Source of the DNA: Enterobacteria phage vB_EcoS_Rogue1
Reading direction: 5' to 3' (one strand)
DNA: 45,805 bases
Sequence record: NC_019718.1
In this document: positions 9,564-15,156 of the stretch, piece by piece
How positions within the stretch are numbered: the first letter of the stretch is position 1
How the letters are laid out: every line of letters begins with the position of its first letter
Notes under the pieces: generated by a model
The model's database searches: none
Told to the model about the DNA's origin: nothing
The model's input: only the letters and a program-made list of their open reading frames with translations
Translations under genes and position numbers: made by a program

Positions 9564-11009
9564 ATGGCTTACACAGAAATTGCTATGGCAGTAGGTAATT
9601 CACCTGAAACCTTAGCCAGAAACGTAAAAATGATGATTTCATCAGGATTCCAGCCATATGGCGACGTGCAGATGCTGAGCGGTACCCTATTTGGCATGAA
9701 GATGGCAAAAGGAACAGCAAACAACGTTGAAGACTTCATGGTTACATCAGACACCACAATTCAGGGTTTAGTTAACAGGGTTAACCGATATCTAGCACAG
9801 GGCTGGCGAAGGTTTGGTAATGCCCACTTCGAGGATGGCGCTTATATTTCAGCTCTGGCGAAAGGTGATTTTGTAAGTGATGAGGGCGGAGGTTCAGGTG
9901 AAGCAGGTCCACAAGGTCCGGTTGGTCCAGCTGGCCCCGCAGGCGTAGCTGGTCCGCAAGGTCCGCAAGGTCCACAAGGCCCAGCTGGTGCTACCGGCCC
10001 GGCAGGCGCGGCTGGCGCTAAAGGTGACACTGGCCCCGCAGGCGTAGCTGGTCCGCAAGGTCCACAAGGTGAGACTGGAGAAGCTGGTCCACAGGGTTCT
10101 ATCGGCCCAACAGGCGCCACAGGTCCATCCGGACCAAAAGGTGATAAAGGTGATGCAGGTCCAGTTGGCCCTGCGGGATTGACTTTCCGCGGGATGTACG
10201 ACGCAGCGACAGCTTACGTTAAAGATGATGTTGTTACATTCAATAGCTCCAGCTGGTTTGCTACCACCGCTGTGACCGGAGAGAATCCAGATATTAGCGA
10301 TTCCTGGGAGTTGCTGGCCGCACAGGGCGCCCCGGGTCCGCAAGGCGCAACTGGTCCAACAGGTCCAACTGGCCCGGCAGGTCCGGCAGGTATTCAAGGG
10401 GCTCAGGGAGAGAGAGGGATTCAGGGTGAGCAAGGTCCGTCAGGCCCGCAAGGCTTGCAAGGTGCAGCTGGTCCAGTTGGACCTCAAGGCCCAGCAGGTC
10501 CGCAGGGTGAGCGAGGAATACAGGGTCCGGTTGGCCCTCAAGGTCCAATTGGCCCTAAAGGCGATAAAGGTGACGCAGGGATGTCAAGATCATTCCTTAA
10601 AGTTAGAACATCACCAAATACAGGCACTAATCACATGATTAGGCTTCCAGCACCTTTAAGCAATATTTCTATAGGGATAAGACTGGATTCAAACATTCGT
10701 TTTAGTATTAGGGCTTGGATTGATGATGGCACTACAGCTAGAACTATAAGGGGTAATATTGAAGCGTTCAATGAAACTGGAGTTTACACTAACACAACAG
10801 TAAGAACTTCGATATCTACATCAACAGAAACTGGCACAGTACTTCTTGGTGATATTGGAGAGTTCCAAGGTATCAGGCCATACACTCTTAGTTTTTATGA
10901 AACCACAACAGACACAATGTGGAGAGCAACCATAAATCTATTTACAGCTGGATACATTGTGAATGGAAACCAAGCCCTATGCATAGAGCTAGTAAGGCTT
11001 GATGCATAA
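9564..11009 (+). CDS. collagen-like (Gly-X-Y repeat) protein with non-collagenous N- and C-terminal domains
   Basis: Two long runs of [12 protein letters not shown] triplets (about 9880-10180 and 10320-10580); opposite-strand ORFs here are repeat artefacts. Confidence 0.8.
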
Positions 11010-11012
11010 AAT

Positions 11013-11037
11013 CAATAGAGAAATGATTACTCTATTG
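11013..11037 (+). other. perfect 8-bp stem hairpin (CAATAGAG, 9-nt loop, CTCTATTG) just after the collagen-like gene stop
   Basis: Inverted repeat read directly; no T-run follows, so a processing site or protein-binding site is as likely as a terminator. Confidence 0.4.
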
Positions 11038-11062
11038 TCCCAATCAAAATCTCGTGTATAAT
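11035..11062 (+). promoter_or_regulatory. sigma70-like promoter (TTGTCC, 16-bp spacer, TATAAT) upstream of the capsid gene
   Basis: Perfect -10 TATAAT at 11057-11062 with a 4/6 -35 hexamer. Confidence 0.4.
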
Positions 11063-11100
11063 TGACACGTAAACTCATAAACAAAAGGATGCATCTTAAT

Positions 11101-12048
11101 ATGACTATCAAACTTGACGCTTTCGAGCAAGAAAAGATTACTAACCACCTGCGAGCTATGGGCGTTGATAAGGCTGATGCGGCTGGTATCTGGACCGTGA
11201 AGCAGCTAACTGCAAGCCTGAATAAAGCTTACGAAACTGAGTACGACCAGAACTCCGTAGTAAACCTGTTCCCTGTAAGCAATGAAATTCCCGGCTATGC
11301 TAAGTACTTCGAGTATCCGGTATTTGATGGCGTTGGTATTGCTCAGATCGTAGCTGACTACACTGATGACCTGCCACTTGTTGACGCTTTAGCAACTGAA
11401 CGTCAGGGTAAAGTTTTCCGTTTTGGTAATGCTTTCTTGATTTCCATCGATGAAATTAAAGTTGGTCAAGCTACCGGTCAGTCACTATCTACTCGCAAGC
11501 AATCTCTTGCTTTCGAAGCTCACGATAAGCTGCTTGATAAACTGGTATGGTCAGGCTCTACTGCTCACGGTATCCCGAGTGTGTTCGACTATCCAAATAT
11601 CAACAACGTTGTTAGCGGTGGCTCATGGTCTCAACCAACTACAGCAGTAAGCGATATTACAAGTCTGCTGGATATTATCGAGACTTCAACCAATGGTCAG
11701 CACCGTGCAACTCACCTGCTTCTGCCTACTACCGCTCGTCGTATCATGCAGAACCTGGTTCCTGGTACCTCTGTTAGCTACGGTGAGTTCTTCCGCCAGA
11801 ACAACAGCGGAGTAACTGTTGAGTTCGTTCAGTACCTGAATGATTACAATGGCACTGGCACCTCTGCTGCTATTGCTTATGAGAAAGACCCTAACAACAT
11901 GGCCATCGAGATTCCTGAAGCGACTAACGCACTGCCAGCTCAGCCGAAGGATTTGCACTTCCGTGTTCCGGTAACTTCTAAAGCAACTGGTTTGATCGTG
12001 TTTAGGCCTTTAACGATGGCTGTAATGAAAGGCATTACTTTCGCGTAA
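11101..12048 (+). CDS. putative major capsid protein
   Basis: 315 aa (start refined to the ATG after AAAGGA RBS), flanked by strong terminators, positioned after the scaffold and before the neck genes. Confidence 0.65.
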   Translation: MTIKLDAFEQEKITNHLRAMGVDKADAAGIWTVKQLTASLNKAYETEYDQNSVVNLFPVSNEIPGYAKYFEYPVFDGVGIAQIVADYTDDLPLVDALATERQGKVFRFGNAFLISIDEIKVGQATGQSLSTRKQSLAFEAHDKLLDKLVWSGSTAHGIPSVFDYPNINNVVSGGSWSQPTTAVSDITSLLDIIETSTNGQHRATHLLLPTTARRIMQNLVPGTSVSYGEFFRQNNSGVTVEFVQYLNDYNGTGTSAAIAYEKDPNNMAIEIPEATNALPAQPKDLHFRVPVTSKATGLIVFRPLTMAVMKGITFA

Positions 12049-12063
12049 TAGCACTTTTTGATA
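12049..12063 (+). promoter_or_regulatory. palindromic box TAGCA-CTTTT-TGATA directly abutting the capsid stop, followed by a terminator hairpin
   Basis: Member of the repeated box family. Confidence 0.45.
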
Positions 12064-12069
12064 AGACAT

Positions 12070-12096
12070 AGCACCCTTCGGGGTGCTATTTTTGTT
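12070..12096 (+). terminator. rho-independent terminator
   Basis: AGCACCC-TTCG-GGGTGCT hairpin followed by ATTTTTGTTT. Confidence 0.75.
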
Positions 12097-12111
12097 TAAG
12101 GAGGAGCAAAC

Positions 12112-12597
12112 ATGAACTACAACGACTATTTCGCTTATGATGACGGAAAGATATTCTGGACTTCAAAAACAACAGATATGGCGCACAACATAAGACTTGG
12201 GGATGAGGCCGGGACTTGCAATGGTCTTGGTTACAAAAGGGTTATGTTGTTTGGTAAGCACACCATGGTTCATCACATAGTTTGGATCATGCATGGCAAT
12301 GAGATACCAAAGGGCATGGAGGTTGACCACTTGGATCATGATAGGCGCAACAACAGGATAGAGAATCTAAGGCTGGTAGACAGGGGTGTAAACATGAGGA
12401 ATAAGTCTACGTACAGGAACAGCAAGACCGGTCACCATGGAGTTACTATCAGGCCGGACAGTGGAAAGTATCGAGCTAAGATAACGATTAATAAGAAGGT
12501 TATCAACTTGGGTACTTTTGATTCAATAGATGACGCAATATCAGCCAGAAAGGATGCGGAAGTAAAGTATGGATTCCATGCCAACCACGGGGTATAA
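12112..12597 (+). CDS. HNH homing endonuclease with C-terminal AP2-like DNA-binding domain
   Basis: HNH core VDHLDHDRRNNRIENLRLV..N; C-terminal GVTIRPDSGKYRAKI...LGTFDSIDDAISARKDAEVKYGF resembles an AP2 domain; AGGAGG RBS. Confidence 0.85.
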   Translation: MNYNDYFAYDDGKIFWTSKTTDMAHNIRLGDEAGTCNGLGYKRVMLFGKHTMVHHIVWIMHGNEIPKGMEVDHLDHDRRNNRIENLRLVDRGVNMRNKSTYRNSKTGHHGVTIRPDSGKYRAKITINKKVINLGTFDSIDDAISARKDAEVKYGFHANHGV

Positions 12598-12625
12598 TCA
12601 AACAATCGAAACAAAGGAGGAAAGA

Positions 12626-12871
12626 ATGAAACTGTTACATAAAGGTGCTTGTGTTATCCGTCTTGGCGCAAAAGATTATCTTCCAGGCGACACTATCGAG
12701 GTTGAAGAGTTATCAGTTGGATTAAAGATTTTGGTAGCTGAAGGCAAGCTTGAGGTTGAGGATGACCATAAGGCAACTAAAGAAATCGAGCAGGAAGTTA
12801 AAGCCAAGGCTAAGCCTAAGAAGCAACCAAAGACTATTGATGAAGCTGAGAATGGCGGCGACTACAAATAA
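12626..12871 (+). CDS. hypothetical protein (81 aa, Lys/Glu-rich C-terminus)
   Basis: Start refined to the ATG after AAGGAGG RBS; followed by a terminator. Confidence 0.5.
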   Translation: MKLLHKGACVIRLGAKDYLPGDTIEVEELSVGLKILVAEGKLEVEDDHKATKEIEQEVKAKAKPKKQPKTIDEAENGGDYK

Positions 12872-12877
12872 ACCAAA

Positions 12878-12900
12878 AGGGCGCTTCGGCGTCCTTTATT
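12878..12900 (+). terminator. rho-independent terminator
   Basis: GGGCGC-TTCG-GCGTCC hairpin (one G-U pair) followed by TTTATT. Confidence 0.6.
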
Positions 12901-12915
12901 GTATGGAGATATCAA

Positions 12916-13317
12916 ATGAATGAAGAAGTAATTGCGTACATGCGCACGCTTTACCCGCCTCTTAAGAGTCAGCCTGATGATGTTCTTAACGCATGGATTG
13001 AGGTGGCCAGGCTATTTATCTGCTTAGATAAGTTTGGCGACAAGCAGGTTCAGGCATTGGCATTCTACACGCTTCACTTGCTTAGCCAGGATATCGCGCT
13101 TAAGACTGAGAATGATTCAAGCCAGACATCCTCTGAACGGGTCAAGTCCTACTCCCTTTCCGGTGAGTACACGATTAGCTACGATACAAGCACTGCCGCA
13201 GCGAGTTCATCTAACCTTGAAGCATCCTCGTGGGGTAAGCTTTACATTGATTTGATGCGTCGCAAGGTTGGTCGTTGGGGACTGATTACGGCTGGCGGCG
13301 CGAGGTGCTGCCGATGA
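12916..13317 (+). CDS. putative head-tail connector (gp6-like)
   Basis: 133 aa; first of four translationally coupled ORFs between the capsid and major tail genes; assignment by position. Confidence 0.45.
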   Translation: MNEEVIAYMRTLYPPLKSQPDDVLNAWIEVARLFICLDKFGDKQVQALAFYTLHLLSQDIALKTENDSSQTSSERVKSYSLSGEYTISYDTSTAAASSSNLEASSWGKLYIDLMRRKVGRWGLITAGGARCCR

Positions 13318-13682
13318 ATCATGCACTTTTGCAGCAGCAAATTAAAGCTGGTATCAATCTCCTGTCAGATGGTGATGGCGTTTTCGAAGCTACAACTCAA
13401 CCAACCATCTCGATCGTAAATGGCTACGAAGTGCGCACGCCTGGCACTTCATACACAGTGCGAGGTGTTATCCGTGAGTTTAAAGCGCGAGACATTGACG
13501 GTGAAATCATCAAATTTGGTGACCGTCGCGGAATTTTTACTGCTGATTCAGTTGTATCGGAAGGCGACCGCATCTACATTGACCGGGAAGCATATACAGT
13601 AATAGACCCGCGACCAGTGAAGCCAACAGGTACGGTAATCGCGTACAGGCCAGTGCTTAGGAGGGCTGCAACTTATGGCTAA
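13314..13682 (+). CDS. putative head-tail adaptor / head closure protein
   Basis: Start refined to an ATG overlapping the upstream stop (ATGA); position. Confidence 0.4.
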   Translation: MNHALLQQQIKAGINLLSDGDGVFEATTQPTISIVNGYEVRTPGTSYTVRGVIREFKARDIDGEIIKFGDRRGIFTADSVVSEGDRIYIDREAYTVIDPRPVKPTGTVIAYRPVLRRAATYG

Positions 13683-14103
13683 TGACGTTGTTATTTTCAG
13701 GAACTCAATTAACGCATGGATTGATGGCGTGACAGAGGGCGTAGAATTGATTGTGGAAGGCACGCTAACCAAGGCTACCAACGACATCGTTAAGCTATCT
13801 CCGGTTGATACGGGTCGATTCAGGGGCAACTGGCAGGCAACTGGCAACTCACCTGCCGCGCAGTCGCTGAATAATTACGACCCTGACGGCAATGAGACTC
13901 GTAACTCTCTTCGCAGGCAAATCTACGCACTGGCCAGGGATAACAATACGAAAGTAATTTACATTACCAACCGTCTTGATTATGCGCAATTTCTTGAGTT
14001 TGGTTCATCCAATCAGGCACCTTCTGGTGTTCTTGGAGTTGTCCAAAAGAGGCTTGGCCGTTACTTTGCTGAGGCGGTACAGGAGGCTAAACGTGCACTA
14101 TGA
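13675..14103 (+). CDS. putative neck protein (HK97 gp10-like)
   Basis: Contains DTGRFRGNW, resembling the conserved motif of gp10-like proteins (from memory); position. Confidence 0.5.
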   Translation: MANDVVIFRNSINAWIDGVTEGVELIVEGTLTKATNDIVKLSPVDTGRFRGNWQATGNSPAAQSLNNYDPDGNETRNSLRRQIYALARDNNTKVIYITNRLDYAQFLEFGSSNQAPSGVLGVVQKRLGRYFAEAVQEAKRAL

Positions 14104-14491
14104 AATGATGGTTGCAGCAAGGAAACTGGTTAGTGATGCGGCAGTTGATATTGCTGGCAGTCTACCAGTTGCTTACGAGAACTGCGGATTCACGCCACCC
14201 AAAAACGGAAGTTCATGGTTGAAGTTTGATTACACGGAGGTTGATAGTGTGACATGGGGATTGCAGCGAACATGCAGGTATTACGTAGGCATGGTTCAGG
14301 TCTCTATATTCTTTTCACCAGGTGAGGGGACTGATAGACCTCGCCAATTGGCTGGGCGATTGTCAGAAGCTTTCGCCGATGGTACAATGCTTGACAGCGG
14401 ATACATTTATGAAGGCGGATCCGTATTTCCTCCAGTGAAATCGCAATCCGGCTGGTTCATTCCTGTCCGATTCTACGTACGTATGGATTAA
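14093..14491 (+). CDS. putative tail completion / tail terminator protein
   Basis: GTG start 8 nt after AGGAGG (an ATG alternative is at 14105); position just before the major tail gene. Confidence 0.4.
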   Translation: MHYEMMVAARKLVSDAAVDIAGSLPVAYENCGFTPPKNGSSWLKFDYTEVDSVTWGLQRTCRYYVGMVQVSIFFSPGEGTDRPRQLAGRLSEAFADGTMLDSGYIYEGGSVFPPVKSQSGWFIPVRFYVRMD

Positions 14492-14505
14492 TTAAGGAGA
14501 TTTAC

Positions 14506-15156
14506 ATGGCCCATCTCAGCAATGGCACACAAATTTTTTTGCAAGGCTCTAAATCTGAATCGGTAGCCGTAACGGCTATCACTAACGCAGCTCAGCCAGT
14601 TATGACGGTAGCTGACGCTTCAACTTTCGCAGCTGGTGACTTCATTGTTGTTGAGTCATCTTCATGGTCTAAACTTTCAGAGAAACAGTTGCGAGTAGTT
14701 ACATCAACGGCTACAACAATTACCGTTGAAGGCATTGACACTACTGACCCGCTTCAGTTCCCAGCTGGCGGAACGGCATCGATCTACAAGGTTCTTACCT
14801 GGTATGAAATGCCTTGTGTTCAAGACGTTTCAACTGATGGCGGAGAGCAGCAGTTCGTTACTTATCAGTGCCTGGCTGATGACCGTGAGCAGCAGATTCC
14901 AACCTATAAGTCAGCGGTAAACACGACCTATACGTTTGCTCACGAGTTCACCAACCCGATCTACCCGGTACTCCGTAACTACGACGAGTCTGGCGCGCTG
15001 ATTGCGATTCGTGCATACGTTCCTAAAGCTGGCGAAGTTCGACTTTGGACTGGCACTATCGCGTTTAACGAAACTCCAAACGTTTCCGTTAACGAGATCG
15101 AAACTGTATCCGTAGCAATTACGGTACGTGGACGCTATAGCTTCCTGGCTGCATAA
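14506..15156 (+). CDS. putative major tail tube protein
   Basis: 216 aa; followed by a strong terminator; upstream of the chaperone pair and tape measure. Confidence 0.6.
   Translation: MAHLSNGTQIFLQGSKSESVAVTAITNAAQPVMTVADASTFAAGDFIVVESSSWSKLSEKQLRVVTSTATTITVEGIDTTDPLQFPAGGTASIYKVLTWYEMPCVQDVSTDGGEQQFVTYQCLADDREQQIPTYKSAVNTTYTFAHEFTNPIYPVLRNYDESGALIAIRAYVPKAGEVRLWTGTIAFNETPNVSVNEIETVSVAITVRGRYSFLAA

Follow-up and report, generated by a model that had tools for sequence, protein, structure and literature searches.

Between the major capsid gene and the connector genes of coliphage vB_EcoS_Rogue1 (Rogunavirus, Drexlerviridae) lies a gene for an HNH endonuclease with an AP2-like domain, which raises the question of whether this gene is a mobile homing element and how much of the neighbouring DNA belongs to it. 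The window analyzed was the whole genome of 45,805 bp. The original prediction had described a cassette at 12049-12900, made up of a palindromic box, a terminator, the endonuclease gene, an open reading frame (ORF) of 81 amino acids (aa) and a further terminator, and had regarded it as a mobile homing element. Our analysis assigns the ORF at 12112-12597, with a probability of roughly 0.8, to the free-standing homing endonuclease genes that combine an HNN-type HNH with an AP2 domain, a class common in T1-like phages; homing itself is putative. The boundaries of the cassette had to be redrawn on its right side.

Rogue1 was compared with Jk06, its closest relative. The first 25 kb of Rogue1 are approximately 96% identical to Jk06 at the nucleotide (nt) level, in agreement with the Rogue1 paper (PMC3496638), and at the junction of the capsid gene with the DUF7444 gene (hereafter the slot) the two phages show a precise presence/absence difference. 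The stretch missing from Jk06 contains nearly the whole endonuclease gene, confirming that a free-standing gene had been correctly recognized as inserted after the capsid gene. In Jk06 the gap between the capsid and DUF7444 genes is 92 nt long and consists of a terminator, a T run, TATGGCTA and a conserved TATAAT. Phages C119 and phiJLA23 likewise differ in occupancy, and their capsid genes are 100% identical over the last 900 nt compared.

The junction was then typed in about 26 distinct relatives (junction listings L001-L035). A scan of IMG/VR using DUF7444 gave only three phages that were already known, and the scan was repeated with the capsid alignment. The slot was empty, with a gap of 90-97 nt, in about 16 relatives (Jk06, phiJLA23, Sf12, the Opt-719 group, BECP10, the AHP42 group, e4/1c, UDF157lw, Rtp, DTL and several viral contigs). 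Six alleles (Rogue1, L013, L015, L016, L017 and L031) carried orthologues of the Rogue1 gene, all of them 161 aa long, 61-81% identical in amino acid sequence and ending in TATAAT. A second HNH-AP2 lineage occupied the slot in four phages (C119, Sd1, phiEB49 and phiKP26, the last with an apparently degraded copy); its proteins are 33-37% identical to those of the first lineage and 38-53% identical among themselves. The comparison of this junction in related phages, which the original prediction had called for, thus found the gene missing from about 16 of about 26 relatives.

The codon usage of the endonuclease gene is unlike that of its flanks. AGG accounts for eight of its 12 Arg codons versus 25% over the 46 ORFs of the window (Fisher p = 0.002), so that the AGG richness noted earlier was borne out, and ATA is enriched as well (eight of 12 Ile codons versus 20% over the same ORFs, p = 0.0005). 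All nine endonuclease genes tested at the slot, from both lineages, showed the same bias, with AGG/AGA making up 83-100% of the Arg and ATA 57-93% of the Ile codons; the same rare codons are almost never used in the five capsid genes tested. The patchy occupancy and the atypical codons fit a mobile homing element, as originally proposed, and suggest that the endonuclease gene is probably mobile. The condition named in advance as refuting this reading, a cassette found in all relatives with codons like those of its flanks, does not hold.

Rare Arg codons were also seen elsewhere in the Rogue1 genome. The tape-measure gene (15896-18949) is AGG-frequent, with 31 AGG codons, and in the collagen-repeat protein gene upstream of the capsid gene (9564-11009) AGA/AGG make up 15 of 20 Arg codons, ATA being used too. 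The only tRNA gene of the phage (3387-3462) is a tRNA-Arg with anticodon CCU, which reads AGG, the most enriched codon of the endonuclease gene; this tRNA is also mentioned in the Rogue1 paper (PMC3496638).

The product of the gene is 100% identical to the public protein 'HNH endonuclease [Enterobacteria phage vB_EcoS_Rogue1]', and both domains assigned to it from the letters alone were recovered. Residues 52-96 matched PF13392 (HNH_3) with 59.9 bits, the curated cut-off being 24.8, and PHROG 99, which the protein also matched, is itself named 'HNH endonuclease'. The sole solved relative found by sequence search was I-HmuI (1U3E; E 4.4e-4, or 4.8e-10 with the family profile). The motif DHlDhdrrNNrieNLRlvdrgvNmrN of the Rogue1 protein aligns with DHkDgnkdNNlstNLRwvtqkiNveN of I-HmuI, which places the HNN catalytic and metal residues. 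The catalytic core contains D72-H73, N81, N85 and N94, with N97 just beyond it; D72, H73, N85 and N97 are invariant across 25 homologues, and N81 and N94 are at least 90% conserved. An AlphaFold model of the protein (predicted local distance difference test score, pLDDT, 88.9) contains the beta-beta-alpha metal fold, formed by strands 69-73 and 86-90 followed by a helix at 91-95. The top Foldseek match of this model was again 1U3E (E 5.9e-4, probability 1.00, 96 columns).

The assignment of the AP2-like domain relied on the family profile and on the fold. The Pfam AP2 model (PF00847) matched residues 97-161 with 18.2 bits (E 0.003), below its cut-off of 33.3 bits; among the second-lineage proteins Sd1 gp42 was borderline at 33.2 bits and C119 gp05 reached 25.3. 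A profile of the 25 homologues, on the other hand, found AP2 structures in the PDB (WRI1, 7WQ5, E 3.4e-8; TEM1, 7ET4, E 4.6e-4; also ERF096 and AtERF1), which align over profile positions 112-159. In the model this region forms an antiparallel sheet of strands 111-113, 120-126 and 129-136 and a helix at 139-153. Foldseek aligned it with AtERF1 (1GCC) over 58 columns, with a root-mean-square deviation of 2.3 and a template modelling (TM) score of 0.71 normalised to the target; for 7ET4 and 7WQ5 the probability was 1.00 but the E-values were only 0.03-0.1. Judging by sequence and model, the ORF encodes an HNH endonuclease with an AP2-like domain, for which nuclease activity is predicted.

The endonuclease gene stands alone in an intergenic region, outside any intron or intein, and has its own translation signals. 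The GGAGG of its ribosome-binding site ends 7 nt 5' of the ATG and lies inside the stretch missing from Jk06. A sigma-70 promoter scan revealed no promoter of its own, and a tblastn search of the window with five HNH-AP2 queries matched only 12112-12594, with no paralogue elsewhere.

The right end of the insertion was defined by the empty alleles. The 81-aa ORF and the second terminator both exist, as had been predicted, yet they were rejected as parts of the cassette since both were found in every empty allele. The ORF is the DUF7444 gene, which, like its terminator, was found in all relatives examined, with occupied and empty slots alike (JK_24 in Jk06, for example). This distribution marks the pair as conserved residents of the head module and places the right end of the cassette at 12592, just 5' of TATAAT, instead of at 12900. 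The TATAAT box is found in all empty and all occupied alleles except Sd1 (TATCAT), spans all capsid lineages and both forms of empty allele described below, and is located approximately 27-33 nt 5' of the DUF7444 start codon. A promoter search around it found no matching -35 element; the box may serve as a -10 element or belong to a nuclease target.

The left end depends on the empty allele that is compared. Against Jk06 the missing DNA begins at 12099, but against empty alleles of the Rtp, DTL and AHP42 type the foreign stretch begins at about 12051, right after the capsid stop codon. Two forms of empty allele were distinguished: Jk06, Sf12, Opt-719 and phiJLA23 have a box and a terminator similar to those of occupied alleles, and the other form (Rtp, DTL, AHP42, BECP10 and e4/1c among others) has a terminator GCCCTC...GAGGGC directly after the stop codon. 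The GCACCC terminator, the box and the leader, on the other hand, are common to all ten occupied alleles, whatever their capsid lineage. In L015 the capsid tail is 96% identical to that of Rtp, yet the occupied form starts right after the stop codon. Because all ten occupied alleles carry the box and terminator while the Rtp/DTL-type empty alleles differ, the comparison indicates that the endonuclease gene moves together with the DNA between about 12051 and 12097. A left end at about 12049, as first proposed, is defensible in this light.

The elements of this leader were only partly as described before. The terminator after the capsid stop (12048) was confirmed: a hairpin at 12068-12089 with a folding energy of -20.5 kcal/mol (z = -4.7) is followed by a T run. 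The palindromic box did not hold, the window containing no self-contained palindrome after the capsid stop; AATAGCAC is a repeat of the left arm of the terminator and, through that repeat, is complementary to 12083-12090. A true palindrome, GCAATTATTGC, occupies the same position in Jk06, Sf12 and Opt-719.

The base of the terminator stem (12070-12087) also varies among the alleles. It reads GCACCC...GGGTGC in the ten occupied alleles and in the empty phiJLA23, and CCACCC...GGGTGG, a compensatory swap, in the empty Jk06, Sf12 and Opt-719. This swap could be a target or immunity polymorphism, or could reflect shared ancestry only. The coordinates of all features are listed in the table.

Table. 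Features at the capsid-DUF7444 slot of Rogue1 (positions in the window).
Feature	Position	Strand	Basis or remarks
Inserted DNA relative to a Jk06-type empty allele	12099..12592	+	Alignment with relatives; TATGGCTA (8 nt) in its place in Jk06
HNH-AP2 endonuclease gene, 161 aa	12112..12597	+	HNH_3 (PF13392) E 1.9e-16; phrog_99 E 1.3e-59
HNH (His-Me finger) catalytic core, residues 52-96	12265..12399	+	Pfam match, I-HmuI alignment, Foldseek
AP2-like DNA-binding domain, about residues 107-153, three strands and a helix	12430..12570	+	Family profile against PDB, model, Foldseek
Ribosome-binding site AAGGAGGAG of the endonuclease gene	12098..12106	+	Read from the sequence
AATAGCAC, direct repeat of the terminator's left arm	12047..12054	+	Inverted-repeat scan; conserved in all occupied alleles
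Rho-independent capsid terminator, ATAGCACCC-TTCG-GGGTGCTAT and T run	12068..12097	+	Hairpin 12068-12089, fold
Conserved TATAAT box, resident, right junction	12593..12598	+	Junction listings; gives the TAA stop of the endonuclease gene
Divergent tract adjoining the endonuclease gene (capsid 3' tail and intergenic leader), candidate co-conversion or recombination tract	11916..12098	+	Rogue1-Jk06 comparison
Major capsid protein gene, resident left flank	11089..12048	+	PF09950 E 8.7e-41; phrog_264 E 3e-93
Resident 81-aa gene, DUF7444	12626..12871	+	PF24231 E 5.9e-26; phrog_2716
Resident terminator after DUF7444	12876..12897	+	Fold -14.4 kcal/mol, z = -3.2; annotated terminator in AHP42
DUF4054 virion structural protein gene, first of the connector module	12916..13317	+	PF13262 E 2.6e-18; phrog_302

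The two lineages were compared at the slot. The second-lineage genes C119 gp05, phiEB49 gp51 and Sd1 gp42 share with the Rogue1 gene the slot, the upstream box, the GCACCC terminator, the leader, the domain architecture and the rare-codon bias. They differ from it in the low protein identity given above, in their greater length (174-196 aa) and in the right junction, which lies 14 nt further left than in Rogue1. C119 gp05 and phiEB49 gp51 end with a TAG stop in sequence that is also present in the empty phiJLA23, whereas the Rogue1 gene ends in TATAAT. A direct exchange between the lineages is seen in L031 (3013-3498) and phiEB49 (L011, 2215-2739), which are 93-95% identical in their flanks, the leader included as far as the start codon. 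Their ORFs are unrelated (about 45% nucleotide identity), indicating that one whole ORF has replaced the other between the start codon and the TATAAT box. Between Rogue1 and L013, the HNH protein is 81% identical, the capsid 72% and DUF7444 36%.

Among the orthologues at the slot the ratio of nonsynonymous to synonymous divergence (dN/dS) was 0.05-0.14, and synonymous divergence (dS) was saturated. These values indicate that the protein is under purifying selection, and the gene appears to be functional, yet anciently associated with the slot. No donor was found at the DNA level among 50,697 phage records, in which endonuclease genes located at other sites gave only about 70-75% identity over 90-150 nt. 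At the protein level, the best matches from the annotated phage collection reach only about 50% identity and are encoded at other genome positions.

Some further alleles deserve mention. We considered whether phiJLA23 carries the deletion scar of a second-lineage gene, which is unlikely as its gap has the standard 92 nt; the shared 21 nt are better read, from the alignment, as the original target flank. The second-lineage copy of phiKP26 (L003, 2550-3127) contains Ns, is 65 nt shorter than that of C119 and has broken frames, reflecting either real decay or poor sequence. The phiKP26 record also lists a minus-strand 'HNH endonuclease' (L003, 2511-2756), a seemingly spurious annotation overlapping the end of the capsid gene. 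Phage phiEB49 has another HNH-AP2 gene, gp45 (L011, 4720-5202), 41% identical to that of Rogue1 and located between the tail terminator and major tail protein genes. The corresponding junction of Rogue1 consists of only 14 nt (14491-14506) and is empty, making this a second polymorphic slot.

The DNA adjoining the insertion was examined for traces of recombination. Between Rogue1 and Jk06, 29 mismatches were counted in the 171 nt of 11916-12086 (17%) versus seven in 9600-11915 (0.3%), and sliding identity drops from 1.00 to 0.83 at this tract. Nearly all of the changes are synonymous, only three amino acids being altered. Past the gene, the two phages differ at nine positions in 12592-12915. 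The region 11916-12098 is a candidate co-conversion or recombination tract.

In other pairs as well, the last 150 nt or so of the capsid gene are less conserved than the gene body (Rogue1/Jk06, 87% versus 99%; phiEB49/DTL, 69% versus 94%; phiEB49/L031, 75% versus 93%). The capsid 3' end looks, from these alignments, like a recombination hot zone beside the slot in which the protein is nearly constant.

Several results weigh against homing. Occupancy is not generally accompanied by co-conversion of the capsid 3' tail, whose identity was 71.3% in occupied pairs and 71.7% in mixed ones. Mosaicism alone is weak evidence because a second patch between Rogue1 and Jk06, at 13005-13991 (about 85 mismatches in approximately 1 kb versus three in 14000-15100), covers the DUF4054, head-closure and neck genes and does not adjoin the endonuclease gene. 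The saturated synonymous sites imply that no sampled copy is a recent transfer, and they are also compatible with vertical descent and repeated precise loss. Strong purifying selection would equally suit a gene beneficial to the phage. A long-resident accessory gene of this kind, which would exclude or degrade co-infecting relatives or act as a regulator by binding the capsid terminator region, and which would be inherited vertically with repeated loss, draws on the same low dN/dS and saturated dS among orthologues fixed at a single site. It would also be in keeping with the constant length of every orthologue (161 aa), with an HNH divergence that roughly follows capsid lineages in the L015/L016/L017 group and with the ability of AP2 domains to act as pure DNA binders. 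A 2026 preprint on DNA-binding silencers encoded by phages makes repeated mention of AP2. We nevertheless consider the accessory-gene reading unlikely. The gene is dispensable, as the closest relative lacks it and some 16 of about 26 relatives do, these being viable isolates or assembled phage contigs; the Rogue1-L013 identity of the HNH protein exceeds that of both flanking genes; one ORF has been swapped for another inside 93-95% identical flanks; and the catalytic residues are intact. Excluding competitors by cutting their genomes would, moreover, be mechanistically the same as homing.

Intact catalytic residues bear as well on the possibility of decay, in which the gene would be what is left of a homing gene, now inactive and heading for loss. 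Homing endonuclease genes often degenerate after fixation (PMC2248197), and the second-lineage copy of phiKP26 looks degraded. In Rogue1 and its five orthologues, on the other hand, the ORF is intact, the catalytic and DNA-binding residues are conserved and dN/dS is low, and the structure model is a confident one, which makes decay very unlikely. The position of the gene in the head morphogenesis block, beside the capsid gene, could suggest instead a packaging-associated HNH nuclease that assists the terminase, like gp74 of HK97. Terminase-associated HNH proteins are of the cysteine-containing PF01844 type, whereas the Rogue1 protein is an I-HmuI-like HNH_3 protein with an AP2 domain. Its neighbours are the capsid and DUF7444 genes, neither terminase nor portal genes, and it is missing from Jk06 as well as from most close relatives that share the packaging module. 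As the gene is dispensable, a role in packaging is contradicted, and we regard this explanation as scarcely credible.

Under the homing interpretation, the gene would be expressed at a low level, late in infection, by read-through of the capsid terminator; no promoter was detected 5' of the gene. The rare AGG/AGA/ATA codons would hold translation low. In a cell co-infected with an empty-slot relative, the AP2 and N-terminal hairpin domains would bind in or near the interval from the terminator to TATAAT, and the HNH domain would nick or cut the empty junction. Nicking is the activity of I-HmuI, the nearest relative of solved structure. Repair by recombination with the occupied genome would next bring the gene into the empty allele, using the conserved capsid 3' end as the left homology arm and the region from TATAAT to DUF7444 as the right one. 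Such a placement of the arms would explain the co-transfer of the non-homologous box and terminator, to which a capsid 3' segment of variable length would be added. Immunity of the occupied allele would follow from the splitting or alteration of its site.

The putative homing endonuclease was compared with known systems. I-HmuI of Bacillus phage SPO1 has, like the Rogue1 protein, an HNH_3-type His-Me finger core with D-H...N...N residues and without a Cys4 zinc site, and a similar N-terminal beta-hairpin region before the core. It is encoded inside a group I intron, whereas the Rogue1 gene is free-standing and its 161-aa product has an AP2-like C-terminal end; the two proteins are only about 24% identical over 96 aligned positions. 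The C-terminal DNA-binding part of I-HmuI is helical, not AP2.

Closer in organization are the free-standing HNN-AP2 genes documented in T1, Rtp, T5 and Xanthomonas phages including Xp10, which are patchy among relatives (PMC2248197). The genes of Rtp (rtp40), TLS (endY), T1, T5 and Xp10/OP1/Xop411 share with that of Rogue1 their architecture, size and free-standing intergenic position. The closest annotated proteins are Rtp rtp40 and BEK7 (both about 50% identical) and TLS endY (46%). T1-like and other HNN-AP2 homologues occupy other positions, for example beside helicase or exonuclease genes. The insertion sites of the Xanthomonas phage genes were concluded to look sequence-independent (PMC2248197); two lineages, by contrast, have made repeated and precise use of the capsid-DUF7444 slot.

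Homing endonuclease genes near capsid genes and at recombination boundaries have been described (Barth, Dunham & Seed 2023, PMC10448857). These genes and the seg/mob genes of T4 resemble the Rogue1 gene in lying beside an essential capsid gene, at the edge of a mosaic block and with alternative genes at one locus. For them there is experimental or population evidence of homing, whereas homing of the Rogue1 gene is putative. The 'IPA-HNH' genes of ICP1 are too divergent for the HNH_3 profile, of which the Rogue1 gene is a canonical match. Neither the Rogue1 paper nor the AHP24 genus paper mentions endonucleases or homing.

On the capsid side, the start codon of the major capsid gene is ambiguous (TTG 11062, ATG 11089 or ATG 11101); relatives annotate a gene of 960 nt. 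Relatives label the collagen-repeat gene mentioned above 'DNA polymerase' or 'tail fiber', and its length differs between them, that of Rogue1 having an extra internal region compared with Jk06 (PMC3496638).

A broader model may be outlined, which we hold to be possible although doubtful. The capsid-DUF7444 slot of the Rogunavirinae would be a contested landing pad, in which two distant HNH-AP2 lineages swap ORF-for-ORF within a shared mobile frame (box, private GCACCC terminator and leader) and drive an unusually high nucleotide turnover in the last 150 nt or so of the capsid gene. The swap at the base of the terminator stem would then possibly be an immunity polymorphism read by a GC-preferring AP2 domain.

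Neither the phage nor this kind of element is new: the Rogue1 gene already carries the annotation 'HNH endonuclease' and is ordinary for this phage family. Mildly notable is the precise use of a single intergenic slot of 92 nt by two HNH-AP2 lineages. With the cassette boundaries corrected, the difference between Rogue1 and its sister Jk06 at this head-gene junction comes down, on the homing interpretation, to a selfish nuclease gene. To our knowledge, AP2-type endonucleases are a class with little biochemical characterization, and the pairs Rogue1/Jk06 and C119/phiJLA23, occupied and empty in near-identical backgrounds, offer a natural system for studying homing and target recognition by such enzymes. 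The use of these phages in the biocontrol of E. coli O157 is under consideration too, and recombination between co-applied phages matters there.

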